From: an uncultured archaeon
GTDB lineage: Archaea; Asgardarchaeota; Lokiarchaeia; Sigyniarchaeales; SOKP01
Assembly (NCBI GenBank): GCA_964598265.1
Contig: CAZRBD010000001.1
Location: forward strand, 1,590-65,589
Direction of reading: 5' to 3'
Length of the DNA stretch: 64,000 bases
Both the position numbers and the translations under genes were made by a program. The notes beneath the pieces are model-generated. The model was not told where the DNA came from. It made no database searches and worked only from the letters and a program-made list of their open reading frames with translations. Shown here piece after piece: positions 15,467-64,000 of the stretch. Positions within the stretch are counted from its first letter, which is position 1. The number at the start of each line of letters is the position of its first letter.

Positions 15467-15480
15467 TTTTTTTTTTTTTT
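15467..15480 (+). terminator. Oligo-T tract (T14) immediately after the stop of 14768..15466
   Basis: 14 consecutive T directly follow the stop codon. Archaeal RNAP terminates at oligo-T. Confidence 0.5.
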
Positions 15481-19292: not shown

Positions 19293-21392
19293 ATGGATAA
19301 AATAATGGCGATAAATCCTCCAATTGTAGATTTGAACTCAATGGAAGCATTAATTGATGAGTTAAAGAATGCTACTGGGATGAAACTTGATCATTACCAA
19401 AGAAATTTCTTAGAAAAGCGAATTAATTTCAGAATGGAGCATTTAGGTATTGAAAATTACATAGATTATATTAATCTTATCCATTCGAGTCCTGTAGAGC
19501 GAGATTTGTTCCTAGATAAATTTACTATAAACTATACCTATTTTTTTAGAAATCTTACAGTTTTTCAGAATTTTGAGAAATTTATCCAATTTTATGTTAG
19601 GAAATTAGAAAAATCTAAAAAAATCATAAGAATTTGGTCGGCACCTTGTGCCACAGGTGATGAACCTTACTCTTTAGCAATGATATTGGATAATATTAAA
19701 AAAAAAAAAAAGATTTTTCCAGACTTTAAAATCTATGCCTCTGATATTGATACAAATGCTATTAAATTAGCCGTTGATGGTGAATATGGAGAATATGCTG
19801 TACATGAATTACCCGAACATTATTTAACAACTTACTTTACAAAAACAATTACTGAACTAGGACCTAAATACAAGATCAATGATCAGATTAAAAATAAAGT
19901 AGAATTCATTCAAGAAGATATTTTAAAAGGCTCTCATGTAAGTCAAAAGTATGATGTCATATTTTGTAGGAATTTTTTTATATATATTAACCAAAATGCT
20001 CGGGATCTTTTCTTAAAAATTATCGAAAACAGACTATATAATGGTGGTTTATTATGCATTGGTGGATCAGAAACATTAGCTCGTAAATATCATCATTTTA
20101 CTAGTGTTAACTTAAAAGATAGGTTCTATATTAAAGGTTATTTTGATAAAAATGAATCTTATAGAAATGGGATTGCTAAACTCTTAGGAGCTAAGAGAAT
20201 TACTAAAAAACACTCACCTTCAAGAAAAATTAAAAAACTTCTTAAAACAGAAAAGACGCGTGAAAAACCAAAAAGAGAAACGAAATTAATTGATGATATC
20301 AAGGAAATATTTGAAAGAAAAGAAATCAAGGAGGAAGTCCATGACATTCAAGGCAAAGAAAGAACGGAAGTTAAATTCACTAAAATTGTAGTAAATAATG
20401 GAACATTAGACGATAATATAAAACACACAACAGAGCCTTTAATAGTACCTACAGAAGAAGGGAAAACTTTATCATTAGAACATAGAGGAAAATCGTTAAA
20501 ACGTAGGGAATTATTACTACAGCAAAAAGAATTACATCTCGATGAGAAAATTAAATACATCGTTACTCAATCAAAATTCTTAGAAGGAGAAAGAGAGAAA
20601 ATTGATGAGCTCTCAGAAATTTTAAATAAAAAAGAAGAGGAAATAATTAACCGTACATTAGTTTTAGAACGTATTACAAGACAAACGGAACTAAAAGAAA
20701 GAAATGTGGCTCAAAGAGAGACTCAACTTGAAAAACGATTAAATTTAATAGAACAATACTCTAGACAAATGGTCGAACAAGAAAGACGTTTTTCTAATGA
20801 TTCTCGTAAATTTGCAGAGAATAATTCTAACGAAGATGAAATTAACTCCTTTGAGGAAAAAAGGATAGATCGAATTAAAACTCCGAACGAAAAAAACGAA
20901 TTAAATATTCCAAAAGGGTACTACAGCCTTATTAATTCCTTTGATAAAAATGAAAGATCTACTAAATTGACAATAAATGGATTAGGTTCGGGAATTGCCT
21001 TAGTTTTTAAAGATGCAATTAATAATATATTTGCCATGTCTCATATAACATTACCATCCTCAAGAGCTTCCAAACAGGGATATCATCTACTCTTTCCACA
21101 TACATTTGTAGATACATCAGTTCAAGATTTATATAATAACGTAATTTACAATGGAGGAAATAGGTCTAGTATCAAAGCTTTCATAGTTGGTGGTGCAAAA
21201 CTATTTTTAGACTATGATATGACTTATCAGGAGAATATTGATGCTATAAGAGAAGAATTAGCAGTACTTCAAATTGAGATTGAAGGCGAAGATATTGGAG
21301 GTTTAAGTGAAAGATCAATCAAATATGATACTATAAATGACGTTTTTTATGTAAAAAAAACCTGGGAATTTGAATATAGAAAAATAAAATAA
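19293..21392 (+). CDS. Fusion protein: CheR-type SAM methyltransferase, ~300-aa charged coiled coil, CheD-like domain
   Basis: CheR motifs 'IRIWSAPCATGDEPYSLAMIL' and 'IFCRNFFIYI'. CheD-like tail 'INGLGSGIALVF..IFAMSHITLP..AFIVGGAKLF..IEGEDIGGLSERS'. Confidence 0.7.
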   Translation: MDKIMAINPPIVDLNSMEALIDELKNATGMKLDHYQRNFLEKRINFRMEHLGIENYIDYINLIHSSPVERDLFLDKFTINYTYFFRNLTVFQNFEKFIQFYVRKLEKSKKIIRIWSAPCATGDEPYSLAMILDNIKKKKKIFPDFKIYASDIDTNAIKLAVDGEYGEYAVHELPEHYLTTYFTKTITELGPKYKINDQIKNKVEFIQEDILKGSHVSQKYDVIFCRNFFIYINQNARDLFLKIIENRLYNGGLLCIGGSETLARKYHHFTSVNLKDRFYIKGYFDKNESYRNGIAKLLGAKRITKKHSPSRKIKKLLKTEKTREKPKRETKLIDDIKEIFERKEIKEEVHDIQGKERTEVKFTKIVVNNGTLDDNIKHTTEPLIVPTEEGKTLSLEHRGKSLKRRELLLQQKELHLDEKIKYIVTQSKFLEGEREKIDELSEILNKKEEEIINRTLVLERITRQTELKERNVAQRETQLEKRLNLIEQYSRQMVEQERRFSNDSRKFAENNSNEDEINSFEEKRIDRIKTPNEKNELNIPKGYYSLINSFDKNERSTKLTINGLGSGIALVFKDAINNIFAMSHITLPSSRASKQGYHLLFPHTFVDTSVQDLYNNVIYNGGNRSSIKAFIVGGAKLFLDYDMTYQENIDAIREELAVLQIEIEGEDIGGLSERSIKYDTINDVFYVKKTWEFEYRKIK

Positions 21393-25473: not shown

Positions 25474-27339
25474 ATGAAAATTCTTTTAATTCACTCACAG
25501 GATGTAGAAGTTGTTAAAAATAAAGAAGCTACGAGTAATCCCCAAGAATTTAAAGATGATGTAATAAAATTGAAAGGTTTAATACTCGTCTGTTTTGTTT
25601 CCGTTGAAGATCAAGATACTTATGATACAGATTTAATTGCCAAACAAGGGGCTGAGGTAATTGAAGATGCAATACTTCAAATAACAAATTTCCCCGAAAG
25701 AGTAAGTGAGAAGAATGAAGAAATTAGAGATCATAATAAGAAGATCGAAGAAGGAAAGATTAAAGGTAAACAGAGGAAGCTTGTTGAATTAATCAAAGAC
25801 AGGAGCATATACCACGTTGACAAAATACTCGTTTATCCGTGGGCTCATTTAAGTAAATTTCTAAGTAATGAGTCAAATGCAATGGAAGTGTGCCCAAAAA
25901 TTGCAAATTTATTAGAAAAAAAAGGTATTGAAGCAAGATTTTCTCCTTTTGGTTGGTATAAGTCCTTTAAAATTAACTGTATAGGTCATGAAGTAGCTGA
26001 GATGTTTAGAGATGTAAAGTTGGGTATTAAACCAAAGGAACAAGTGAAAAACTCAGTCTTTAAAGTAATAACGCCTCAAGGGAAAGAGTTAAATATAAAA
26101 TGGGATGAAAATAAAAATATATTACCTCTGGAAGGTATACAAGACGAAAACTTCTTAGCCCTGTTGAAATCAGAATTGGGATCACGAAAGGTAGACAAGA
26201 ATATAGAACCTGCCCATATAAAAGTGATGAAAGAGTTTGAGCTTCTAGATTTTGATCCAAATTCCGATAAAGGCATTCTTCGTTGGTATACCAAGGGAAT
26301 GATAATGAAAAATCTTATCAAAAATTTCATAGAAGATAGAGTAATAGATTTTGGAGCTATACTTATTGAAACTCCAATTATGTACACTGTAAAAAATAAG
26401 AAATTAACTGCCCAAACTGCTCGATTTCCGGCACGGAGTTATTGGCTTGAATCCGGCAAAAACAGATTTCTGTTGAGATACGCAAGCGATTTTCTTCTAT
26501 TTGATTTATTTTCTCAAATGAGTTTAAAACCACAATATTTTCCTTTACGAGTTTATGAATTTGAGCAGTATGATTTTCGAAGAGAACAAGAAGGGGAATT
26601 ATCGGGATTAAGGAGGTTGCGTGGATTTATAATGCCCGATCTTCATACTCTCTGTAAAGATTTAGAATCTTCAATTGATGAATTTAAAAAGCAGTATAAA
26701 TTAATTAGGAGCCTAGAGGATGATTTAGGGATAAAGAGTTATTCTATTTTTAGAGCTACACAAAAATTTTATGAGGAAAATAGAGATTGGATTATTGATT
26801 TAATTAAAACTGAAAATCATCCTGCATTATTAGAATTATGGGAAGATAGATATTATTACTATGTTTTGAAATTTGAAAGAAATGTACTTTCTGCTCAAAA
26901 CAAGAGTGCTACACTAGCAACTAATCAAATTGATGTTGAAAGCTCCTTAGAATTCATGGTTGATAATGAAGGCAAGAAGAGGCAAAAGTACAATATTTCC
27001 TTTGTAGATACTGACGGTCAAATAAAATATCCTATTATTCTTCATAATTCTCCTACGGGGGGTTTAGAAAGAATAATATGGGGGTTAATCGAGTCAGCAG
27101 TTCGTAATAGAGAAAAATTGGTTCCGGGATTTAAAACATGGTTAAGTCCAATCCAAGTACGGATTATCACTATATCTGATGATCAAAATGAGTATGCTGA
27201 AAGATTATTAAATATTGTTAATGGAGAAGAATTCAGGGCAGATTGGGATGATCGTACAGAAACGGTTGGAAAGAAGATAAGACAAGCAGAAATAGAGAGG
27301 AAATCCTATACAATTATCATAGGAAAGGAAAAATTGTAA
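25474..27339 (+). CDS. thrS: Threonyl-tRNA synthetase, archaeal form with N-terminal editing domain; body up to the first in-frame stop
   Basis: 'MKILLIHS..' archaeal editing domain, a class II core ('FRREQEGELSGLRRLRGF', 'HNSPTGGLERI'), and the start of the anticodon-binding domain. Confidence 0.85.
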   Translation: MKILLIHSQDVEVVKNKEATSNPQEFKDDVIKLKGLILVCFVSVEDQDTYDTDLIAKQGAEVIEDAILQITNFPERVSEKNEEIRDHNKKIEEGKIKGKQRKLVELIKDRSIYHVDKILVYPWAHLSKFLSNESNAMEVCPKIANLLEKKGIEARFSPFGWYKSFKINCIGHEVAEMFRDVKLGIKPKEQVKNSVFKVITPQGKELNIKWDENKNILPLEGIQDENFLALLKSELGSRKVDKNIEPAHIKVMKEFELLDFDPNSDKGILRWYTKGMIMKNLIKNFIEDRVIDFGAILIETPIMYTVKNKKLTAQTARFPARSYWLESGKNRFLLRYASDFLLFDLFSQMSLKPQYFPLRVYEFEQYDFRREQEGELSGLRRLRGFIMPDLHTLCKDLESSIDEFKKQYKLIRSLEDDLGIKSYSIFRATQKFYEENRDWIIDLIKTENHPALLELWEDRYYYYVLKFERNVLSAQNKSATLATNQIDVESSLEFMVDNEGKKRQKYNISFVDTDGQIKYPIILHNSPTGGLERIIWGLIESAVRNREKLVPGFKTWLSPIQVRIITISDDQNEYAERLLNIVNGEEFRADWDDRTETVGKKIRQAEIERKSYTIIIGKEKL

Positions 27340-27354
27340 AATCAAACGATCTAG

Positions 27355-27534
27355 ATTAGAAAAAGAATGATTGATAAACCTATTGGATCAAAGAAACAGA
27401 CAGCTAAACAGAACAATGATGTAAATTTAGAAAAGTTATTTGAAATGTTAGAAGAAGACACAAGAAACTTTCCAAAATATAAATTACCAATCCCCTTTAG
27501 AAAATTCTCGACAAAAATTTACTTTCGAAGATGA
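27355..27534 (+). other. thrS: In-frame continuation of thrS after TAA (27337) and TAG (27352): conserved ThrRS C-terminal tail
   Basis: Same frame as thrS. It reads 'IRKRMIDKPIGS...LEKLFEMLEEDTRNFPKYKLPIPFRKFSTKIYFRR' and ends at TGA 27532-27534. Confidence 0.6.
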
Positions 27535-28198: not shown

Positions 28199-28735
28199 TT
28201 ATTCAACTAAATCCTTAAGGCATGCTCTTGCAATAAACTCAAACGCCTGCTCTACATTTAGTCCCGTTTTTGCTGATGTTTCCAAATAATTACAGCTCAA
28301 TTTCTTTGCCAAGTCTTCTGCCTCTGCTCTGTCAACTTCTCTCTCCAAATCCGCTTTATTCCCAAGAAGTATCATTGGAATAGTTTTCTTAACAGTTTTC
28401 TTTATTGAACTTATCCACCCTGGAATTTTGAGTAATGTTTGACTAGATGATAAATCAAACACACCAAGCGCAGCATTACTTCCCTTAAAGTAAATATTTC
28501 TAAGTTTATGAAATTGTGGTTGTCCTCCTATATCCCAAAGTAAAAGACGAACTGTTTTTCCATCAATATCCACATCTTTGATAAGGAAATTACTACCAAT
28601 AGTTTTTTTTAAATCCTCACCAAAATAATCTTTGATATATCGTAGTAATAAACTTGTCTTCCCCACTCCTCCAGGTCCAAACAAGGTTATCTTAAATTTA
28701 AACAACGAATTTGGCGACATTTTTAATCTCCTCAT
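28199..28735 (-). CDS. Ras/Rab-like small GTPase
   Basis: All five G boxes are present: 'GPGGVGKTS' (G1), T in 'KKTIGSNF' (G2), 'WDIGGQ' (G3), 'GNKADL' (G4) and 'ETSAK' (G5). There is no C-terminal prenylation box. Confidence 0.85.
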   Translation of the reverse strand: MRRLKMSPNSLFKFKITLFGPGGVGKTSLLLRYIKDYFGEDLKKTIGSNFLIKDVDIDGKTVRLLLWDIGGQPQFHKLRNIYFKGSNAALGVFDLSSSQTLLKIPGWISSIKKTVKKTIPMILLGNKADLEREVDRAEAEDLAKKLSCNYLETSAKTGLNVEQAFEFIARACLKDLVE

Positions 28736-28984: not shown

Positions 28985-30274
28985 TCATGATTTATTCTTT
29001 TTTTGTCCTACTTTCCCTAGTTTAGACATTAACCATTCAGGAGATCCTACCCCATTAAAGAATTTCAACCAGATATACATTAGCAAACCTAAAAATCCAC
29101 AATAAGCTACATATACTATGGGAAGAAATATAATGGAAAATTGACTTAGAAATAGTGGAAGAAATAAATATTGAATAAGAAACAGGCTTAAAGACACTTT
29201 TCCATAAAATATGGCCATCTTTATCGCGTCGTTGCTTTTTTTCTTAATATCAATATAATAAAAGCTTACTGCAATGATTAATAATGCAGCACCAAGATTA
29301 TAAAATAAATTTTGGGCTGAACTCCTTATTAAAAAGAGAGGCATTCCTGGAAATTGATAATAATCTTGTTGATTAGCGATTCTAAGTAAATCTATATGAA
29401 GATATTCAGAGAATTCAATAGTAGTTGCTGTTTGTAAAGCCCACCCGGGTTCCCATTGATTAAAACTAATACCATAAGGAACAACAATAAAAACACCTAT
29501 TAAGATTAAAGAAACACCATAAGCGGAAAACAAACGAAACAATTTATAATATGCTTCTTGAGTTCCTTTCATCATGGCTTCAAAAAGCTGTTCGCCAAAG
29601 ATCGTAGATATAAAACAGATTGCAATCCAAGGGAGAAAAGGCATTTGTGGGAGAGGAGAAGTAATAATAAAATGTAAGATATAAACAGCTGGGTTATTAT
29701 CTTTAAAACTAAAAAGAATTTGTCTGATCCAAGGCGATATGAATATTATTATTGCACCAATTAATATTCGGGCACTTTTCCTTAATTTTAAGGCATAATA
29801 TGAAAAAATTTGGGAAAATCCAATAAACATAAGAAAATTCCAACCCCATAAATTCGCTGGGAATGGAACTACAACACCTGCAGTCTGTATTGACATAGGA
29901 TTCCACAAAACGCCAATGATGATGATAACTATCCCTCTTGTAAAAACTTTATTACGAATAATCTTTTCTGATACATCCCCCCCCTTTTTTTTTTTAATAC
30001 TAAAAACCACGCTAAGAGCAGAAAGAAAAACAAATAGTGAGGGTCCAACTATATCTAATAAAGCGAACACAAGCCCATATATATATCTCCAATCATTATC
30101 GAGCCAAAAGAGAGCCACATGAGCTACGACTATAAAACCAATTGCAACACCTTTAACAAAATCTATTGATGCAATTCTCTTTTGTGATGAATTATTCTCT
30201 CCTAGATTTTCTTTACCTTCATTAGGTGTTTTTGAAATTCTAAAATCTTGATGTTTATTGATAATTGTTGACAT
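28985..30274 (-). CDS. Polytopic membrane protein, DUF1624/HGSNAT-like putative transmembrane acyltransferase
   Basis: 'RIASIDFVKGVAIGFIVVAH' N-terminal motif and more than 9 TM helices. It is a paralog of 31761..33182, and both end in 'NGVGSPEWLM..G..GQK'. Confidence 0.5.
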   Translation of the reverse strand: MSTIINKHQDFRISKTPNEGKENLGENNSSQKRIASIDFVKGVAIGFIVVAHVALFWLDNDWRYIYGLVFALLDIVGPSLFVFLSALSVVFSIKKKKGGDVSEKIIRNKVFTRGIVIIIIGVLWNPMSIQTAGVVVPFPANLWGWNFLMFIGFSQIFSYYALKLRKSARILIGAIIIFISPWIRQILFSFKDNNPAVYILHFIITSPLPQMPFLPWIAICFISTIFGEQLFEAMMKGTQEAYYKLFRLFSAYGVSLILIGVFIVVPYGISFNQWEPGWALQTATTIEFSEYLHIDLLRIANQQDYYQFPGMPLFLIRSSAQNLFYNLGAALLIIAVSFYYIDIKKKSNDAIKMAIFYGKVSLSLFLIQYLFLPLFLSQFSIIFLPIVYVAYCGFLGLLMYIWLKFFNGVGSPEWLMSKLGKVGQKKNKS

Positions 30275-33440: not shown

Positions 33441-34751
33441 CTATTTAACAACTTTAAAATTTAATTTCTCAAATTTTAGAAAGATCTCATCCATTCTTTT
33501 CTTAGAAGAATGTGAGTCTTTAGTTTTTGTTGCTATTAAACATGAATATTGATTTGATTTATTAAATGAAATGGGGGGGGTGACTAATTCAGGAATTTCC
33601 CTCAATAATTTGGATAAGAATTGCTCATCTAATCGTTCTAAAGAATTGATGTTTTTTGATATTAATTCAATTCTAGAAAATTGTGAAAAGTTAAGAAATT
33701 CAAGATCTACTGGTTCGAAAATATTCATTTTTGATTTATAAATTAAATCTGCGCAGTTATAATTAATGACGTTTCTTACACCAAGATAAGATGTCGTCAA
33801 TCTAGGATTTATCTCTATAAAAGAGAATGAGGCGTTTTCTGTACTAATAAAATCAATGCCGAAATAGCCATTAAACCCTTTAAATTCAACTTTTTCAAGA
33901 ATTCTATCAATTTTTTCAATCAATTCTTCTATATTTTCTACTGGTGTTGTCCCTCCTAAATATTCTGAGATATTGGCTTGATTCATAATATTTACATCTT
34001 GAGTATTTATACTTAAGATAAATGGATTATTAATTTGAGATTTTGATACCTGGGGACACCCAATCAAAGAAATGCTTAAATCTCTTCCGTGTACAAATTC
34101 TTGCAATATATAATCCCTCCCTAATTCTGAGTATTCATTAAAATCTCTAAAGAAATTTAAAATTTCATTTTCTCCCTCAAAATAATAAATCGACTCTGCT
34201 CCCACTCCATCCTCTGGTTTAATAATAATGGGGCAATTTAATTTTTTAAATTTTTGAAGTATAAAATCTATGTCTAATTCTTTTCTTGTAGAGGGTATTC
34301 TATACGTTCTTGGTGTAGGAATTTTATTTTTTCTAAAAAATTTGAATACCTTAATTTTCGAGGTGCTTTGACTAATACATTTTAAACTAGCACTTAGTAA
34401 TTTTTTATTAGATTTTTTAACTAACTGAGATAGATTAAAAAGATTATTTGAAGATTCGGGAGCAATTATGAAGCAGTAAGAGCATTCTTCTAATGCCTCT
34501 TTGAAAGGTATTAAATAGTTATCCTCTGCATTTACGGTTTTAATGTTATTAGGATTGGCTTGAAGGAATTTGGATAAAAAAGACGCTCTATAGTCCAAAA
34601 TAGTACTTATCTCAAATTTTAATTCTTTAAAATCAGAAATAATTGCTCTTAACATTCCAAATCCTTCGCAAAATAATGAATTGGGTATATTAACTTTATT
34701 AAAACCACCACCGGAGATAAATTCAAAGATAAAAAGAGTATTTTTATTCAT
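33441..34751 (-). CDS. ATP-grasp ligase (MfnD-like architecture)
   Basis: 'IIIKPEDGVGAESIY', 'ILQEFVHGRDLSISL' and 'GYFGIDFI..FIEINPRLTTSY'. The N-terminus 'FIFEFISGGG' pre-ATP-grasp domain resembles the tyramine-glutamate ligase family. Confidence 0.65.
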   Translation of the reverse strand: MNKNTLFIFEFISGGGFNKVNIPNSLFCEGFGMLRAIISDFKELKFEISTILDYRASFLSKFLQANPNNIKTVNAEDNYLIPFKEALEECSYCFIIAPESSNNLFNLSQLVKKSNKKLLSASLKCISQSTSKIKVFKFFRKNKIPTPRTYRIPSTRKELDIDFILQKFKKLNCPIIIKPEDGVGAESIYYFEGENEILNFFRDFNEYSELGRDYILQEFVHGRDLSISLIGCPQVSKSQINNPFILSINTQDVNIMNQANISEYLGGTTPVENIEELIEKIDRILEKVEFKGFNGYFGIDFISTENASFSFIEINPRLTTSYLGVRNVINYNCADLIYKSKMNIFEPVDLEFLNFSQFSRIELISKNINSLERLDEQFLSKLLREIPELVTPPISFNKSNQYSCLIATKTKDSHSSKKRMDEIFLKFEKLNFKVVK

Positions 34752-35022: not shown

Positions 35023-36252
35023 ATGTTTTTTGACGAAGAAACCATGAGAAGGATAAGGTATCTTCATTATAGTATTAAAAAAATTGAAGATGCCTTAGTT
35101 AAAGAAGATGAACATTTTAATTTAGACGATTTAAATTTGATTTTGGAATATACTAAAATCTTAAATGTTAATTACCGAAATGAAAACCATAAAGAGATCC
35201 TTAAAGCTTTAAATATCACTACGGTATTTCAAGATCCACAAAGCAATAAAGAAATTGAAATTAAAGATTTAATGTTCGAATGTGCTCGAGTATTATGGGT
35301 AATGGCAAAATCCTATGCTCAATTATCAGAAAAATATGAGGAAGAGGAAAATTGGGAAAATGCTGTAGTTTCTATGACAGAAAGCAGTAAAATGTACAAA
35401 ACTTCCGCATATTTTAGCGCTGCCGTTGTGTTTCAAAATGATAAAGGAGTAACACTCACATCTGAAAATCTAGAACTTAATTCGGAGGAATCAAGAATTT
35501 TAGCTCAAAGTGTTGCTACATTACGAGAAGAACATAATAATAATATATATTTCTGTTCGAAGATGTATGCTGGTCTTAGTTTATTGTCAAAACGTTTATT
35601 CTATCTTAAAAAACATGAAGAAAAAAAAAAGCAACAAATTAGAGCACAATTTCATTATGATATGGGAAAAGCATGCTTTCTTAAAGCACAGGCTACCATA
35701 GAATCATCAATAACAACAATCAACAAAGAGAAAGTTAAAAAGTTACAGCAAAAAGCTTCATGGTATTTTATTAAAGCTAAAGATATCTGGGAAGATATGC
35801 TCAAAAATATTCCAGCCACTGAGGAAGAAATGGAAAATATTGAGTTAAATTTATCAATAGTTAATGAAAATTTAAAAGAAAAGGATGTAGAACAATTAGA
35901 TTATGAGGAAATAAAAAAAATACAAGATCCAGAGCCAATTATTATTATACCTGAAAATTTAGCTCCATTTGTGCCAAAAAGCATTATTTATTTAACCAAA
36001 TTCGTTCCAAAAGATCTAAATATAAAAAGATTTAAATCTTATCAAAAAAAGAAATTAGAAGAAAAGATCCCATATAGTAAAAAAGAAAAATTGATAGACA
36101 AGAAAGCAGGAGTAGTTCGAACTATAAATGAACTTAAATTATTAAAGGAAAATAATGAAATTGAAGTAGAAAAATTCGCTGAGCTTATGGAAAAATATTC
36201 AACAAAACTAAAAATGATTGGCTCGGCACTTGAAAAATTAGGGAAAAAATAG
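35023..36252 (+). CDS. Hypothetical all-helical protein
   Basis: 409-aa clean ORF, helical and charged, with no motif recognised. Confidence 0.55.
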   Translation: MFFDEETMRRIRYLHYSIKKIEDALVKEDEHFNLDDLNLILEYTKILNVNYRNENHKEILKALNITTVFQDPQSNKEIEIKDLMFECARVLWVMAKSYAQLSEKYEEEENWENAVVSMTESSKMYKTSAYFSAAVVFQNDKGVTLTSENLELNSEESRILAQSVATLREEHNNNIYFCSKMYAGLSLLSKRLFYLKKHEEKKKQQIRAQFHYDMGKACFLKAQATIESSITTINKEKVKKLQQKASWYFIKAKDIWEDMLKNIPATEEEMENIELNLSIVNENLKEKDVEQLDYEEIKKIQDPEPIIIIPENLAPFVPKSIIYLTKFVPKDLNIKRFKSYQKKKLEEKIPYSKKEKLIDKKAGVVRTINELKLLKENNEIEVEKFAELMEKYSTKLKMIGSALEKLGKK

Positions 36253-43728: not shown

Positions 43729-44589
43729 TTAGTTGGAGCATCTATTGTCCTTTTTTTTTTTTTTATTAACAACAATTAAATCTTTTACATTATCAATATC
43801 ATAAAAATTGTAATCAGAACCAATTTCCTGTGCCATAATTTCGTTTCCTTTTTCGATTACCACATTCAACATTTCCCAAACTGTTTTTTTAGGAACTTTT
43901 ATTTTTGAAATTATACTGATTATGTTGTAATTCAATAAGAAAATTGGAATAACTTCTTTGATGCAATCACTAGAATGCAATTTTTGTATATCTATTTGAG
44001 AAATTTTAACAAGTAATTTGTTTAAACTTGATGTCTTAATATCTACAATTGAAATTGTCTTAGGATCTCCATAAAGTTCGTTTAATTTCTCAACATCTAT
44101 ATTTCGATAAAAGATCAATGGATAATCTTGAATTATTTTATTTTTTTTTAAAATAACTTGCATAATTTCTGCGAGGATATGGAAATCAAAAATTGTGTCT
44201 CCTGGAATTAATAGATAATTTTTTTTTTTATTAAAGAAATTTTTATTTTTCGTTATGGATAAGAAAGAATATAAGGGTCCTAATTTATAAACATTCTCAG
44301 AATCTATTATTAACAGCATATCTTGAAGAGATTCGTTATCTTCTGATAATCTGGAAATAAAATCTCTGATTTTATAACCCAAATGACCAATAACTATAGC
44401 GATTTGTTTTATCCCTAATTTTAAAATATTATTTATATTATTCTCTAGAATTGTTTTATTATCTAATGCTTCTATTTTAAGTAAAGGTTTTGGAATAGTC
44501 TTTGTTAAGTGTTTAAGTCTAGAACCTTCTCCAGCACATAGAATTATGGGTGATATTTTATTTCTAATTTCATTCTCTAGTGGTAACAA
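43729..44589 (-). CDS. Nucleotidyltransferase (NTP_transferase family); 3' end runs through an A14 tract
   Basis: 'ILCAGEGSRLKHLTKTIPKPLL'. The C-terminal 'KKKKKDNRCSN' is encoded across 43751-43764. Confidence 0.7.
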   Translation of the reverse strand: MLPLENEIRNKISPIILCAGEGSRLKHLTKTIPKPLLKIEALDNKTILENNINNILKLGIKQIAIVIGHLGYKIRDFISRLSEDNESLQDMLLIIDSENVYKLGPLYSFLSITKNKNFFNKKKNYLLIPGDTIFDFHILAEIMQVILKKNKIIQDYPLIFYRNIDVEKLNELYGDPKTISIVDIKTSSLNKLLVKISQIDIQKLHSSDCIKEVIPIFLLNYNIISIISKIKVPKKTVWEMLNVVIEKGNEIMAQEIGSDYNFYDIDNVKDLIVVNKKKKKDNRCSN

Positions 44590-53630: not shown

Positions 53631-53818
53631 GTAAAATTGATCTGAAAAAATGTAATATGAACGAAAGTAAATTCTTATTTATACCTAAAAGTTAAAGATT
53701 AAACTTTTCTAAATCTAATTCCTAATGTATTGTAGAATAGATGGAAAAATCGTAAACTTTTTTAATTTTATGACTTAGAGATCTATATAAATAAAATTTT
53801 TAAATATTAAAATCAAAA

Positions 53819-55519
53819 GTGAAAAATATGGCACAATTAGGTGGAACGCCCATTTTAATAATGAGAGAAGGTACAGAGAGAACGCGTGGTAGAGATGCTA
53901 TGTCAAATAACATCGCTGCTGCGATTGTCATTGCTGAAGCTATAAGAACATCACTTGGACCGCGTGGAATGGATAAAATGCTTGTAGACCAATTTGGAGA
54001 CGTCGTTATTACTAACGATGGAGCTACAATCTTAAAAGAAATTGATGTACAACATCCGGCCGCTAAAATGATGGTCGAAGTAGCTAAAACTCAAGATTCC
54101 GAAGTTGGTGATGGTACAACAACCTCTGTTATTCTTGCTGGTGAATTATTAAAACGAGCTAAAAAACTGATTGAACAAAAAATACATCCAACAGTAATTA
54201 CCGAAGGATTTCGAAAAGCCGCTGAAAAGGCTATTGAAATACTCGAAAATATCTCAGTAAAAAGCGGTATTGATGATGAGAAAGGTTTACGTAATGCTGG
54301 AATGACTTGTATGTCATCTAAAATTGTCTCAGAATCAAAAGAAATACTTGCTCAATTATGCATGGAGGCTATTAAAGCAGTCGCTGAAAAAAATGATGAA
54401 GGTGATTGGGTCGCTGATATTGATAAAGTTCAAATCCAAAAGAAAGCAGGTGAAGGTATCGATGATACCAGCTTAATAAAAGGTATTATCCTCGATAAAG
54501 AAGTCGTTAGCCCTGGAATGCCAAAATCAATAAAAAATGCGAAGATTCTACTCTTGCAAAGCGCTGTTGAAATCGAAAAGACTGAATTTGACGCTAAACT
54601 TCAAATTACCAGTCCAGAACAAATTCAACAATTTCTTGATGAAGAAGAGAAAATGTTAAGAAATATGGTCGAAAAAATTCAAAACTCCGGAGCAAATGTA
54701 TTAATCTGCCAGAAAGGAATAGATGATATGGCTCAACACTTTCTTTCTAAAACGGGAATTATGGCGATTAGACGTGTTAAAAAATCTGATATCGAAAAAC
54801 TCGCTAAAGCTACTGGTGCTGCAATCTTTACTAATCTTGATGATGTTACCACTGAAAAACTTGGATGGGCAGGATTGGTTGAAGAACGCAAAATTATGAA
54901 CGATTCTTGGATTTTCATTGAAGAGTGTAAAGATCCAAAAGCGGTTGTCATTTTTATTCGAGGAGGGACTGACCTTATTGTTGATGAAGTCGAAAGAGCA
55001 ATTCATGATACCTTATGCGTTATAAGAGATATCGTTGAAGATCAGAAAATCGTGGGCGGTGGTGGTGCTCCAGAAATGGAAGCTGCTATCCAATTGCGAA
55101 AATATGCCTCTACCCTAGGGGGACGTGAACAACTCGCTGTAGAAATTTTCGCCGATTCGCTCGATATAATCCCAAAAACCTTGGCTGAAAATGCAGGTCT
55201 TGACCAAATTGACTCACTCATGAAATTAAGAGCTTCCCATCAACAGGGAAATGTTTTTGCTGGTCAGGATTTAGAATCTGATTTAATTATTGTTGATATG
55301 ATGGCAGTTGGGGTAGTCGAACCCACAGTTGTCAAAATTCAAGCAATTAAAAGTGCTACTGAAGCTGCTTCAATGATTTTACGGATTGATGATGTTATCG
55401 CTGCTGCACGATCTGCTGGACCGCCTGGAGGTATGCCACCAGGTGGAATGGGCGGTGGAATGCCGGGGATGGGTGGAATGGGCGGTGGAATGACCCAAGG
55501 CATGAGCGATATGATGTAG
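53819..55519 (+). CDS. ths: Thermosome subunit (group II chaperonin)
   Basis: 'GPRGMDKML', 'ITNDGATIL', 'VGDGTTT' and a C-terminal GGM repeat tail. The likely start is ATG 53828. Confidence 0.95.
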
Positions 55520-56352: not shown

Positions 56353-56539
56353 TATCTCTTCTATTATTTGCTCTTCAGGTATTTTACATCAGCTCCATTT
56401 TTTTTAATTTTACTAGTTTTATGTATAGATCTATTTAAACAAAAATTTCTTTTGTGAGTGACGTCTGGGGATTTTATTTTATATTTTAAGTTTAAATATT
56501 TGTTTTGAAATAAATAGTAAAAAAGACAAAAATTCAATC

Positions 56540-57262
56540 ATGGTTAAGAGTGAAAAAGCTCCCTCTGGTTACATTTATCGAGCAAATAATATTCATAATG
56601 GGAAAAATTACTTAGGAAAAACTGGAAAGACAATAGAAGAAAGATGGAGTGAGCATTTAGATGATGGTAGGGCATTAAAGCGAGAACGAGAAGCTAATCT
56701 TGATAAAAAAATATATGGTACTCATCTCGATAACGCTCTAGCTAAATATGGTCCTGATGCATTTATTGTGACACAGGAAGACGTTGCTTATAGTGAGGCA
56801 GAGTTGAAAGAAAAGGAAAGATATTATGTTAAGGAATATGATTCGATGAATCCAGATAAAGGGTATAATATGACGGAAGGTGGGGAAGGAGGTAGAATGA
56901 GGCTTGAAGTAATCGAAAAAATAAGAAAAATTTCGATAGAGAAGGCAAAAGATCCAATATGGCTGGAAAAAGTAAGCAAGGGAGTTTCAGACAAATATCA
57001 AAACGATCCTGAATATCAAGAAAAACAAGCTAAAGAAAGGAGAGAAAGGGGTGACGATCCGAAATTTCGAGAAAAAATGAGAGATGTAAATCGGCGATAT
57101 AAAAAAGAAATTAAGGATAAAAAAGAATTTCTAGAAGATATCCAGAGGAGGATGAGCAAAGAGATTGCTAAAAAGTATGGTATGAATAGATCAATCGTAA
57201 ATAAAACGATACAGGAATTTTTTAAAAACAATTTTAAAAACTCAAATGATAATTCACCATAG
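56540..57262 (+). CDS. Free-standing GIY-YIG nuclease-domain protein (homing-endonuclease-like) with basic helical C-terminus
   Basis: 'GYIYRANNIHNGKNYLGKT..EERWSEH' (GIY-x-YIG-R) and 'YNMTEGGEGG'. Confidence 0.65.
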   Translation: MVKSEKAPSGYIYRANNIHNGKNYLGKTGKTIEERWSEHLDDGRALKREREANLDKKIYGTHLDNALAKYGPDAFIVTQEDVAYSEAELKEKERYYVKEYDSMNPDKGYNMTEGGEGGRMRLEVIEKIRKISIEKAKDPIWLEKVSKGVSDKYQNDPEYQEKQAKERRERGDDPKFREKMRDVNRRYKKEIKDKKEFLEDIQRRMSKEIAKKYGMNRSIVNKTIQEFFKNNFKNSNDNSP

Positions 57263-57883: not shown

Positions 57884-58076
57884 ATTGTCCTTTATGTAAA
57901 TGTTTCTATTTAATTAAATTGTCAAATTTGACACTTAATATTCTAAATAACAGTATTTAAAATTGTAAGATTTTTTAGAACAAAAGGCATTTATGTAGTT
58001 AGAGATTAAATATGATCAGAAAATAGGTTTTAATAAAAATATTTTATCTCAACTTATTAATTATTAGGAAATCAGA

Positions 58077-60190
58077 GTGTGGAATATAATGAGAAAAGAA
58101 AACAGAGTAAAATTGATTATCATAACTATAGGTATAATATTCGCGATATCGACGAATAGTAAAAGTATTTTCATTGCTCCATTAAATAATAATGAAAATT
58201 TGGAAACTCGAGACAAGTTCTCTTCAAAAAGACCAAAGAATTCGGGTTTCTGGACTCTTAACTCTATTCATGTTGATAATAATTGGTCCGCTACAGCGGA
58301 TTTGGATTGGTGTAGTGGTGACGGATCGTGGAGTAATCCTTATGTTATTGAAAATGTCACCATTGATGCAAGTAGTTCACCTACGGGAAGTGGAATTTAT
58401 ATCAATAATTCCAAGAGCGATTACTTTATAGTCAGAAATGTTACGGTTTACAACGCAGGGAGTGATTTTTTTTATGATGCGGGAATCAAATTGAATAATT
58501 CAAACAACGGAACATTGATAAATAATAACTGTTCAAATAATGGAGGAAATGGTTTTTTGATATATAATAGTGAAAATAACACAATGTCGGGAAACTATGT
58601 AAATTACAATCAATTTGGGATATTTTTTTCTGAGAGCAATAATAACACTTTCTCGGGAAATAATGCAACCTACAACAAAGGGTCAGGGATATATCTATCT
58701 TTGAGTAATTATACCACAATCTCAGGAAATAAAGCTTCTAATAATAATCAGCATGGAATAGTTTTATCATCGAGTAATAATGACAACATTTCAGGAAATT
58801 CCGCATATAACAACACTGACAATGGGATATATTTATCCACTAGTGATAATAACACCATCTCGGGAAATAATGCAACCTACAACAAAGGCTCAGGGATATG
58901 GTTAGACTTTAGTGATAGCACCAACATCTCGGGAAATACCGTTGATAATAACAACTATGGGATATATTTAACTAATAGTCATTACAACAATATTTCGGGA
59001 AACACCGCATATAACAATATTGTCCATGGGATAGATTTAGGCGCAAGTAATGGCAACAATATCTTGGGAAACACCGCATATAACAACACTGTCCATGGGA
59101 TATATATATATATAATAGTAATAACAACAATATCTCGGAAAATACTGCACATAACAACACTATTCATGGGATATGGTTAGACTTTAGTGATAGCAACACG
59201 GTTTCGGGAAATACCGCTAATGATAACTTAGAATATGGAATAACACTACGTTTTAATTCCAATGATAATAATATTACTGAGAATTACATATATCACAACG
59301 CAATAGGAGGAATTGCAATAAAATCTGGTACATGTGAGGATAATATAATTTCTGAAAATATAATAGTAAGTAACGATTTATTTATCAATGACAGCGGCCT
59401 TAATACTATAATAAAATATAATTATCTTGATATAATACCACCTAGTTTTGTCGTAGAAATTCTTGATTTATCATTTTATAAAACAGAATTTATAGTATCT
59501 ATAAATCTTACTAGTCAAGTTACTTTCTTACAAGTTTCTAACGTTTCTATTCAAATGTGGTGGAATGGAAATCTTATCCTTTCAAATGATATCAAAGATA
59601 ATGGAAATGGCTTTTACAATGTCTCCTTACTTCCGATATTCGTTGAGCCTGATGAAAATCCTATTTTATTGAATATGACGTTTTCAGCAGCTTACCATAA
59701 TGTTAAGTATTATGAAATGAATATTGCAGTTGAACCAGAACCTGACGATGCACCAGTCAGTGTATCAAATTTATTATTTATTGAGATTAGAGATCAATCT
59801 TTCTCACTGGAGGAATTTAATATAACGTTCTATATTTATAATGAATCTAATCATGGTATAGACAATGTAACAATACAGATGTGGTGGAATAGCACTGACG
59901 TCTCCTCTATCGTTCTAAATTTAGGGAGTGGCTTGTATTTTGTATCTTTAGAACCTATAACCGTAAAACCTGGAGAAGATCCAATCTTATTTGAAATGAA
60001 TATCTCTGCATTTGGATATGAAGATAAATCTTTCGAGACTTATATTGCTGTAGATCATGATGTTCTTCTTGGCGATGATAGTACAGGTGGAGAAGCTATT
60101 CCTGGTTACTCAATAATTTTTATAGGACTTACTGCAGTGGGTACAATAGGACTTATATACGTAATTTTTAAACGTAAACAACAAATTTAA
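58077..60190 (+). pseudogene. Large surface protein: signal/anchor, ~15 parallel beta-helix (PbH1/NosD-like) repeats, two tandem Ig-like modules, PGF-CTERM-like anchor; frameshifted at (TA)7 59101-59114
   Basis: ORFs 58077..59180 (frame 0) and 59084..60190 (frame 2) are colinear repeats 'ISGN.A.NN...GI.L..S.NN'. Removing one TA gives 'GIYIYNSNNNNISENTAHNN'. The C-terminus is 'IPGYSIIFIGLTAVGTIGLIYVIFKRKQQI'. Confidence 0.75.
59101..59114. repeat. (TA)7 dinucleotide microsatellite inside the surface-protein coding sequence
   Basis: Read directly: 'ggga tatatatatatata atagt'. Confidence 0.95.
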
Positions 60191-62254: not shown

Positions 62255-64000
62255 ATGGCTAATTTTCTGGATTCTTCTGAGTTTCTGTTATTTTATTTTG
62301 TTTTAAACATTGTTATTATAATCCTAAATACATTATTCTTAATATCTCGGAAGAGAGAGAATTCAGTAAATAAGTTAAAATTCCTGATTATCTTTTTATT
62401 AGGGACTTCGATAATTATCTTTGGTTTCACTTCATTTCCGTATCTAATAGCTACTTCAGATTCACTAAGATCTTCAGATCAAGTACTCATGGATACTATT
62501 TTTCTCTTTTTGCTATGTTTTTCTACAGTATTCTTTATTTATTCAGTACATCACTCTGATGACGATATTGTAGAATTAAAAAAGCCCTCCTTTTTTAAAG
62601 CCCGGAAAGGAAAGATAAAGATAGGAAGAATCGTTAAAGAAGGAAGAAAGAAAGGTAAGTTTTTCCTATCTCTAGAAGATCTCGAGAAACATATGTTTGT
62701 TTGCGGTGCAACAGGTACAGGTAAGAGTAATTTCCTTCAAAATTTCTTAATAAACATAACAAAAAGTTATAAGATTCCTTTCCTTCTGGCAGAATTCAAG
62801 GGAGAATATCAATTTTTGCAGAGAAAAATCATTGATTTGATGATAATAAGACCGGGAGAGAATTTTTCAATAAATATATTCAATCCTGGAGATACTCTTC
62901 CGGAAATTCACGCAGAGAGGATATTTGATATCTTGAAGAGTGGTAAATTCTTAGATGATAATGCCGAGTTCTCTCCGCAGATGGAAAAAGTTTTAGTAGA
63001 GATATTAACAAAAGTCTGTAAAAATAAGGAATTTCAAAGCTGGCAAGGATTCTATAAGTATTGTAAAGGGTATGCAAAGAATAAGAGAGCTGAAATTCCA
63101 ATGTTAAGTCAAACACTCATCAGTATCACAAATAGGATAAGAAGATTTTCCTTGGGGCCCTTAAAAGCGATATTTGGTACGGAACACAAAATTAAAACAG
63201 AAAATCTTTTCGATAGAAATATATTAATTGATTTAAGTTCCATTATCCGTTTAGGGGGAGAAAAAGAGGATGCTCTATTTTTTCTTAACATGGTATTGAA
63301 ATATCTATGGGATAAAAACCTTACACGAGGTGCATATAACTTCCAAGGGATTAAGCACATTACAATTGTTGAAGATGCTCAATATTTTGCTCCAAAAGAC
63401 CTTACAAAAAAAAACAAGTTAACATCGTATTTAGAAGACATAGCTCTCCTTCAAAGAGGTACAGGTGAATGTTTGATTTCTTTAGCAACTCATCCTGATA
63501 TTAGTGAAGAGATTTTGGCAAATTGTGGTGTTTTAGTATGCTTTAAGACTCATATAGATAAAGAATTTCTCTGTAAATTATTAAATGTAGATGGGGAGAA
63601 TGAAGAATATTTATCAATTTTAGAAAAAGGGCAATGTATTGTTAGAGTAAATTCAATTAAGAGGCCATTTCTACTTGATGTTCCATATATTCAAAGAGAA
63701 TGGTTAAAAAGCACAGAAATCAATGAAACTAATCGGAGAGTTTTAGATAAGTTTGAAAAAGCAAAAATGGAGAGGGGAGATAAAATTACACATCATTCAG
63801 AAAATAGTGGCAGTTATTTAAATACATTAAAAAATAAGATTGTGAGAGTTATGAGAATGAGAAATAAACATAAAAAAGAAAGAATGGATTCAAACTCGGA
63901 CTTTGATTTTGAAGATGAATATTTGGACTCAGTAAAGAAGGAATTTCAAAATGTTAAGTCTTTAGAAGTTTCTTCTGATTCGGAAGGATTATTTGAAAAT
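62255..64000 (+). CDS. Membrane-anchored HerA/VirB4/FtsK-superfamily P-loop ATPase (3' partial, runs off the window)
   Basis: My translation from ATG 62255 gives 582 open codons. It has 3-4 N-terminal TM helices, Walker A 'VCGATGTGKSNF' and Walker B 'HITIVEDAQYF'. It is absent from the ORF track because no stop falls within the window. Confidence 0.7.
   Translation, partial: MANFLDSSEFLLFYFVLNIVIIILNTLFLISRKRENSVNKLKFLIIFLLGTSIIIFGFTSFPYLIATSDSLRSSDQVLMDTIFLFLLCFSTVFFIYSVHHSDDDIVELKKPSFFKARKGKIKIGRIVKEGRKKGKFFLSLEDLEKHMFVCGATGTGKSNFLQNFLINITKSYKIPFLLAEFKGEYQFLQRKIIDLMIIRPGENFSINIFNPGDTLPEIHAERIFDILKSGKFLDDNAEFSPQMEKVLVEILTKVCKNKEFQSWQGFYKYCKGYAKNKRAEIPMLSQTLISITNRIRRFSLGPLKAIFGTEHKIKTENLFDRNILIDLSSIIRLGGEKEDALFFLNMVLKYLWDKNLTRGAYNFQGIKHITIVEDAQYFAPKDLTKKNKLTSYLEDIALLQRGTGECLISLATHPDISEEILANCGVLVCFKTHIDKEFLCKLLNVDGENEEYLSILEKGQCIVRVNSIKRPFLLDVPYIQREWLKSTEINETNRRVLDKFEKAKMERGDKITHHSENSGSYLNTLKNKIVRVMRMRNKHKKERMDSNSDFDFEDEYLDSVKKEFQNVKSLEVSSDSEGLFEN

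Follow-up and report, generated by a model that had tools for sequence, protein, structure and literature searches.

The window analyzed here is a stretch of 64,000 nucleotides (nt) from an uncultured Lokiarchaeal genome (GenBank assembly GCA_964598265.1, contig CAZRBD010000001.1), and the gene of interest within it encodes a membrane-anchored, right-handed beta-helix protein whose reading frame is broken within a run of alternating T and A. As it stands, the gene is read in two frames. The first, which begins at GTG 58077 or ATG 58089, consists of a series of 23-residue PbH1 units, enters the TA run as ...HGIYIY, and then goes off register as IIVITTISRKILHITTLFMGYG. The final 22 codons of this ORF (open reading frame) are read out of register, up to its end at ...NNTVHGIYIYIIVITTISRKILHITTLFMGYG*. 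The second frame continues the PbH1 series and remains open to the end of the gene, although gene callers recover only a 211-amino acid (aa) ORF from this part of the sequence (59555–60190).

The run itself reads ATATATATATATATA at 59100–59114. It is the longest alternating run of the window, the runner-up being 10 nt in length; (AT)5 runs are present at 30077 and 32490. If one TA is removed from it, the two frames are joined into a 699-aa protein containing ...HGIYIYNSNNNNISENTAHNNTIHGIWLDFSDSNTVSGN..., and this repaired protein matches a public protein (P0001) with 100% identity over 100% of its length. The extra nucleotides can also be placed without recourse to translation. The start-to-start spacings of the PbH1 array are 69, 69, 69, 66, 69, 71, and 69 nt, and the lone spacing of 71 belongs to the unit that holds the tract, which independently locates the additional 2 nt there. 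A preliminary description of the window, made by reading the sequence, had proposed a stop of the first frame at 59180, a second frame open from 59084 to 60190 in which the PbH1 series continues, and the restoration of a protein of ~700 aa by deletion of a single TA; each of these points was borne out.

Alleles of the Gene in Related Assemblies

The contigs that are nearly identical to the window all derive from sediment cores near Loki’s Castle. They come from two sources, namely PRJNA259156 (core GS10_GC14) and the author assemblies KR126, K940, K1000, and K1060 of PRJNA504765 (PMC6401483), of which K940, K1000, and K1060 make up a depth series from core GS10_PC15. Comparison of the tract among these related genomes revealed three alleles, (AT)7A, (AT)6A, and (AT)6G, which are listed with their carriers in Table 1, where contigs and proteins are designated by L and P numbers, respectively. 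The frameshifted (AT)7A allele of the window, equivalent to (TA)7, also occurs on contigs L001–L004, besides L027. In the intact allele of L006 and L025, a 2-nt TA is the sole difference from the gene of the window, and the frameshift thus lies exactly in the TA run, as had been proposed. Just two lengths, (TA)6 and (TA)7, were seen, and they differ among populations that are >99.7% identical and come from one sediment core. In-frame tracts of 13 nt are present in every contig of the sister lineage (L007, L008, L009, L022, and L026), and the in-frame state is therefore regarded as ancestral.

A single contig of the K1060 assembly bears on whether both alleles occur in one sample. Position 1 of SDBT01024685.1 (L029) corresponds to window position 59102, and the contig starts ATATATATATATAATAGT..., which is the longest suffix (13 nt) common to the (TA)6 and (TA)7 alleles. 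A start at the point where the alleles diverge points to an unresolved branch in an assembly graph holding both of them and, judging from this contig start, (TA)6 and (TA)7 probably coexist in the K1060 sample. The upstream 196-aa gene was used to look for a left-hand contig that stops at the tract, and none was found; the contigs there break earlier, at 58680 and 58552. The correspondence between SRR runs and BioSamples is not listed in the supplements of PMC6401483, and the (TA)6 and (TA)7 assemblies may share reads.

The recurrence of the longer tract speaks against a sequencing or assembly error, in which case the true genome would be (TA)6 and the gene intact. Some sequencing technologies tend to make errors at dinucleotide runs, and in the source contig of the window there are indeed suspicious patches that no other assembly shows (27298–27413 and 63022–63079). 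Those patches, however, consist of substitutions that other assemblies do not share, whereas the TA is an indel that they do share. The 15-nt tract recurs in L027, a sample assembly made with another pipeline, and in five independent Logan per-run assemblies, and it is shorter than the k-mers used by assemblers. An error at the TA repeat, which the preliminary description had offered as its alternative, is thus highly improbable and was set aside.

Much the same holds for an old, fixed pseudogene that decays neutrally. The gene does appear as two separate ORFs, both in the window and in several assemblies, but 369 codons downstream of the shift are free of stops despite a G+C content of only 29% (29.3% for the window), at which stops are frequent, the gene matches the intact allele at every other position, and the two alleles occur together in one core. 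The downstream lesions that would accompany a fixed pseudogene in the preliminary description are absent, and such an origin retains hardly any probability.

The wholly intact downstream frame could also mean that (TA)7 still gives rise to the full-length protein, either by a −1 programmed frameshift after ...TAT ATA or by transcriptional slippage. Shifting by −1 past the run's fifth codon, the ribosome would produce GIYIYI-NSNNNN..., with a tolerable insertion of one residue. Recoding of this sort is nevertheless extremely unlikely. No slippery heptamer of the form X XXY YYZ is found, the downstream RNA fold has a z-score of −0.86 (36 of 200 shuffled sequences fold as well), and the closest alleles are in frame, so that the frameshift is not a conserved one. 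A programmed ribosomal frameshift gene was rejected on these grounds, i.e., the lack of a heptamer, the lack of significant structure, and the in-frame state of orthologous alleles.

Searches of other collections added little to the allele series. A DNA-pattern scan across the tract gave 0 matches in the set of species-representative contigs, which does not hold the locus, and the loci related to the gene in those contigs share ≤40% identity, too distant for a comparison of tracts. Exact look-up of the frameshifted ORF (as 367 aa or 363 aa) in the protein collection found none, while the downstream 211-aa ORF was matched. Hypothetical partial products of (TA)4 to (TA)9 likewise gave none by exact look-up in this collection, which evidently does not store products cut by contig ends. 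A protein search with a 106-aa Logan fragment, intended to list further tract alleles, gave no scored matches. Protein P0131 and its contig L035 were rejected as belonging to a different genome without the beta-helix gene.

Table 1. Features of the beta-helix gene in the window, and alleles of its TA tract in related assemblies.
Feature or allele	Window positions, or carriers	Strand	Remarks
Whole gene, 699-aa membrane-anchored right-handed beta-helix protein; frameshifted (OFF) allele here	58089–60190	+	Repaired translation 100% identical to P0001; Pfam and TIGRFAM scores
5′ frame as it stands	58089–59180	+	363 aa from ATG 58089, 367 aa from GTG 58077; stop TAG 59178–59180
N-terminal hydrophobic helix, residues 3–22; signal peptide or membrane anchor	58095–58154	+	AlphaFold2 helix and sequence KLIIITIGIIFAIS
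Array of 69-nt (23-aa) PbH1 repeats	58560–59227	+	Repeat families D1–D3; unit starting at 59099 is 71 nt (extra TA)
31-nt exact internal repeat, copy 1	58651–58681	+	Divergent in ortholog L022
31-nt exact internal repeat, copy 2	58858–58888	+	Logan contigs found here break at the repeat
3′ part of gene, shifted frame	59084–60190	+	369 codons open, no further lesion; stop 60188–60190
Tract (AT)7A, i.e., (TA)7 at 59101–59114; site of +TA insertion	59100–59114		Intact allele (AT)6A; sister lineage (AT)6G
Two tandem beta-sandwich domains, residues 453–545 and 563–652 of repaired protein	59447–60046	+	AlphaFold2; absent from frameshifted product
C-terminal tail IPGYSIIFIGLTAVGTIGLIYVIFKRKQQI; Loki-CTERM-like sorting/anchor signal	60098–60187	+	NF033507 sub-threshold; helix 687–698 in model; absent from frameshifted product
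(AT)7A, frameshifted	Window; L027 (SAMN10404973, 126-kb scaffold); Logan per-run assemblies SRR8482191, 193, 194, 196, and 198		
(AT)6A, intact 699 aa, product P0001	L006/L025/L031 (SAMN10404972)		TA is the sole difference from the window gene
(AT)6G, frame kept, N changed to D; intact, 705 aa	L022/P0123 (SRR1555748)		Different 5′ module
(AT)6G plus G to T at 58932 (GGA to in-frame TGA)	L007 (SRR1555744, ENA re-assembly); L009 (LAZR01004543)		
(AT)6G plus 1-nt deletion at 58809	L008/L030 (SDBU, KR126); separately assembled L026 (SAMN10397929)		

Independent Lesions and Recombination in the Gene

The TA insertion is not the only lesion by which the gene is inactivated. Two alleles of the sister lineage, with an in-frame tract, carry a nonsense mutation or a 1-nt deletion elsewhere in the coding sequence (Table 1). 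Contig L026 has the same lesions as SDBU01041794 and, on the strength of this identity and of the name itself, the ENA prefix “BAEC19-1” is taken to denote a re-assembly of the Backstrom 2019 study. As for the nonsense allele, its database product (P0002; L007 gene 571–2688) shows the in-frame TGA as W, the gene caller having evidently applied genetic code 4 to this AT-rich contig, and the mutation is consequently masked in P0002.

Larger rearrangements are also apparent. In alleles from the GC14 core, the sequence corresponding to window 57975–58444, which comprises the upstream region and the N-terminal ~120 residues, is replaced by an unrelated module of ~800 nt (L007 151–948, L022 655–1452), and both flanks are 98–99% identical. 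The 5′ modules differ by a recombinational cassette swap. Within the beta-helix array, the lineage of the window has a patch at 58661–58685 (with 58863–58887) that is converted to the sequence of the downstream copy, three units on. This patch is an intragenic gene conversion and the origin of the exact 31-nt repeat, the copies of which lie 207 nt (3 × 69) apart. The preliminary description had pointed to long, near-identical internal repeats, and these are real, although the repeat unit is 31 nt with the coordinates of Table 1 rather than 32 nt at 58655. When the 3′ 1658 nt of the gene are compared between the window and L022, 15 of the 20 differing codons are non-synonymous, and 8 of the 20 fall inside the conversion patch.

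Over the 10.6 kb that can be compared between the window and L006, the TA is accompanied by 32 substitutions, mostly in short patches (among them clusters at 53694–53749, 55493–55509, 56458–56539, and 56632–56700). One of these clusters alters the C-terminus of the thermosome (TQ..SD vs. PP..GG). The GIY-YIG variant of the window is also found on the 126-kb scaffold, from which it follows that at least some of the patches are real strain haplotypes.

Architecture and Family of the Encoded Protein

The repaired protein is a member of the right-handed parallel beta-helix repeat proteins, since it passes the curated cut-offs of PF05048 (NosD; 232 bits vs. 23.6), PF13229 (Beta_helix; 164 vs. 25.9), and TIGR03804 (183 bits vs. 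19.45) and is modeled with a beta-helix fold. The AlphaFold2 model has a mean predicted local distance difference test (pLDDT) score of 81.6 and shows, in order, a helix (residues 3–22), a disordered linker, the beta-helix (residues 55–447, pLDDT mostly >90), two beta-sandwich domains, a disordered stalk, and a C-terminal helix (687–698). An additional internal repeat (D4), which bears the motif IQMWWN, occurs in the beta-sandwich region in copies 324 nt apart.

What the protein shares with NosD and the other families named above, and with PfbA of Streptococcus pneumoniae (PDB 4mr0, 3zpp), is a right-handed beta-helix of 22–23-residue PbH1 coils. It differs from both in other respects. The gene is not a NosD ortholog, because the protein reaches just 77.4 bits against the cut-off of 300 for the NosD subfamily model TIGR04247, and no nos genes were seen among its neighbors. 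In the structure comparisons, glycosidases, alginate epimerases, and phage tailspikes are at the top of the list, and the adhesin PfbA is a weak match at rank 35. The C-terminus resembles those of Loki-CTERM (NF033507) proteins, with an IPGY motif, a hydrophobic helix, and a basic KRK tail in a Lokiarchaeal extracellular protein. However, residues 670–697 score 17.7 bits, under the curated cut-off of 19.9, and membership in this family is not established; two of 18 close homologs match NF033507 at E ≤ 0.01.

An architecture of N-terminal helix, beta-helix, two beta-sandwiches, and C-terminal hydrophobic helix with a basic tail makes a location at the cell surface plausible. Of the earlier designation as a surface beta-helix protein and candidate adhesin, the first part is well supported, whereas “adhesin” is a guess, as the fold matches are generic; any function is putative, the matches being mostly to carbohydrate-active enzymes and tailspikes. 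A literature search turned up no work specifically on Loki-CTERM proteins or on the beta-helix surface proteins of Lokiarchaea.

The family to which the gene belongs is very large. Among 8000 candidates scored, 1167 matched at E ≤ 1e-10, and the named matches are from Lokiarchaeota, Promethearchaeota, and other Asgard archaea. Another ORF of the window that also encodes 699 aa (19293–21392) was considered as a paralog because of its equal length and rejected, as it is an unrelated CheR-CheD fusion.

Length and Origin of the TA Tract

The tract is short, and codon usage explains its length. The ancestral peptide G-I-Y-I-Y-N is encoded by GGG ATA TAT ATA TAT AAT, which gives a 13-nt alternating run, and the codons ATA and TAT are both in heavy use here. 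Among 300 windows of 64 kb simulated with a first-order Markov model, seven contained an alternating AT run of at least 13 nt, and one reached 15 nt. Scaled to an assumed genome size of ~5 Mb, the former rate amounts to roughly two runs of at least 13 nt per genome. The IYIY sequence is present at this position in orthologs only, being absent from other family members, and the 64-kb window has no other dinucleotide tract of at least six units.

Mononucleotide runs provide a further comparison. An A14 run at 19698–19711 lies inside the intact CheR-CheD fusion ORF (with a start at 19293 or 19305, ending at 21392), and it keeps this length in each of the six other assemblies, which represent both lineages. 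This invariance suggests that constraint varies from gene to gene, as opposed to a general instability of repeats. Other long runs of the window include T14 at 15467–15480, T14 at 43751–43764, C8T11 at 29977–29995, and G8 at 33573–33580.

These data bear directly on the explanation favored in the preliminary description, a phase-variable locus that operates by TA slippage. In such an evolved contingency locus, the TA tract would be kept as a hypermutable switch with frequent, reversible changes between (TA)6 ON and (TA)7 or other OFF states, and the resulting heterogeneity of the cell surface would serve as bet-hedging. Several observations agree with this. A change of one unit in a coding repeat toggles the 699-aa ORF, tract length is polymorphic among close relatives, ON and OFF lengths occur in genomes >99.7% identical from one core, and the K1060 contig breaks exactly at the point of allele divergence. 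In addition, the downstream frame is without secondary lesions, the gene product is a surface protein, and coding dinucleotide tracts are known to switch outer-membrane adhesin genes such as that of SabA in Helicobacter pylori (PMC2715451). Nonetheless, a contingency locus is unlikely. The two lengths seen can be explained by one change, and the tract is short and a by-product of the IYIY codons, its length being within the reach of the simulations. It is interrupted in the sister lineage, as (AT)6G, and is not conserved among family members. Irreversible lesions (TGA at 58932 and the 1-nt deletion at 58809) inactivate the gene elsewhere, no second tract of this kind exists in the window, and the coding A14 tract does not vary in the same populations. 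Thus, the polymorphism of ON and OFF lengths that the proposal calls for was found, whereas the over-long, conserved tract was not: neither excess length nor maintenance across orthologs, as a contingency locus requires, is seen. Nothing in the data shows either reversibility or a high frequency of switching.

Nature of the Frameshift Allele

The explanation that accounts best for these observations, at a probability of about 0.65, is that the window holds a recent, slippage-derived loss-of-function allele that segregates in a fast-evolving and probably dispensable surface-protein paralog. The ancestral state would be an incidental 13-nt AT run stemming from the I-Y-I-Y codons. Replication slippage in one sub-population would then have added one TA, thereby converting (TA)6 to (TA)7. 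Translation of this allele would leave the frame in mid-beta-helix, in the beta-strand of about the eleventh coil (~residue 341), and encounter a stop 22 codons on. The predicted product would end before the final coils, so that the pair of beta-sandwich domains and the C-terminal anchor would be missing as well, and the truncated allele is almost certainly null or severely crippled. The slippage event would be very recent, since the gene shows no other difference from the intact allele, and broken and intact alleles segregate together in one sediment core.

The wider pattern of variation fits this scenario. The independent nonsense mutation and 1-nt deletion in two other cores, the swap of the 5′ module, and the gene conversion all point to a gene that evolves fast and that, as one of a very large family of paralogs, is individually dispensable. 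In such a gene, loss of function may be tolerated or even intermittently favored, e.g., under viral or partner pressure on the cell surface. The TA run can be described as a mutational weak spot from which one knock-out among several arose, rather than as a demonstrable switch kept for a purpose.

Some points weigh against a one-time loss of function. Two tract lengths in near-identical genomes, probably from one sample, are also what would be expected of a phase-variable locus, and the present data cannot separate a one-off mutation from recurrent switching. The TA is the sole indel in the 10.6 kb compared with L006, which fits a tract that is far more mutable than ordinary sites. Furthermore, the (TA)7 contigs L001–L004 and L027 have the same flank haplotype at 63022–63079 as the (TA)6 contig L006, which could mean that the change has recurred; the window’s own version of this flank is unique and may be an artefact. 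Lastly, the loss of function is one that we infer, and the truncated product would retain the N-terminal helix and 11 coils.

Comparison with Known Systems

The dinucleotide tracts in outer-membrane adhesin genes of H. pylori are found near the 5′ end of these genes, are longer, exist in many lengths, and are conserved as repeats across strains, and their switching has been measured. By contrast, the Lokiarchaeal tract is located mid-gene, has six or seven units only, is a product of the IYIY codons, and carries an interruption in the sister lineage; its lengths are those seen in assemblies. The likeness to phase variation of the SabA type (PMC2715451) consists in a coding dinucleotide run within a surface gene, in which a change by one unit puts translation out of frame and leaves a truncated product, with lengths that vary among close relatives.

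A further parallel may be drawn with segregating loss-of-function polymorphisms in expanded families of prokaryotic surface proteins. Frameshift polymorphism in simple sequence repeats has been surveyed across strains of cultured prokaryotes, and the species table of that survey includes the archaea Methanococcus maripaludis and Sulfolobus islandicus (Lin and Kussell 2012, PMC3315296). There, as here, short coding repeats act as indel hot spots, and frameshift alleles segregate within species. The survey is statistical, whereas the present case is a single locus of an uncultured Asgard archaeon with several independent knock-outs and a coexistence of alleles within one sample that is deduced from contig structure. 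The locus can be counted among the known frameshift polymorphisms associated with repeats, here in the gene for a surface protein. With respect to archaea, a 2025 review of phase variation refers to the distribution of phase-variable loci across the domain as future work (PMC11868660).

The cell-surface biology of Asgard archaea is poorly known, and the locus provides a checkable case, with ON and OFF alleles that are one TA apart in one core and three kinds of independent knock-out across neighboring cores. Even on a conservative reading, members of this Lokiarchaeal beta-helix family turn over fast by slippage, nonsense mutation, module swap, and intragenic gene conversion. Such turnover matters for the interpretation of Asgard metagenome-assembled genomes and for the choice of surface markers. 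It also calls for caution in annotation, as gene callers split the gene into ORFs of 363 aa and 211 aa, and one assembly was read through a TGA with genetic code 4. Should the tract prove to be a contingency locus after all, one that reversibly switches a surface protein of the Loki-CTERM type in sediment populations, Archaea would have one of their first documented examples of phase variation by repeats, and this in the closest lineage to eukaryotes. The independent knock-outs found in other cores would in that case be a sign that the surface protein is under strong, fluctuating selection, exerted by viruses or syntrophic partners.

Source Contig and Other Features of the Window

The contig from which the window was taken (112,130 bp) calls for care in view of substitution patches such as the following two, and the TA insertion is not among these window-only patches. 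The first is the 3′ end of thrS (ORF 25474–27339), where 11 substitutions occur in 116 nt (27298–27413), the sole difference from contigs L023 and L024. They introduce an in-frame TAA (27337–27339) and a TAG (27352–27354) that shorten the threonyl-tRNA synthetase from 686 to 621 aa, and the patch represents a rare defective variant if it is not simply an artefact of the contig. The second is in a gene for a DUF87/HerA-like ATPase (62255 onwards), which has 11 substitutions in 58 nt at 63022–63079, with two amino acid changes, in the window only. The alternative version of this patch is found in all other assemblies examined (L001–L004, L006/L025, and L026–L029).

Elsewhere, the window encodes a small GTPase of the Arf/Ras/Roc type (28199–28735, minus strand) and a BRO1-domain protein (35023–36252, plus strand). 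Both are eukaryote signatures typical of Asgard archaea, and they support the taxonomic assignment of the contig.

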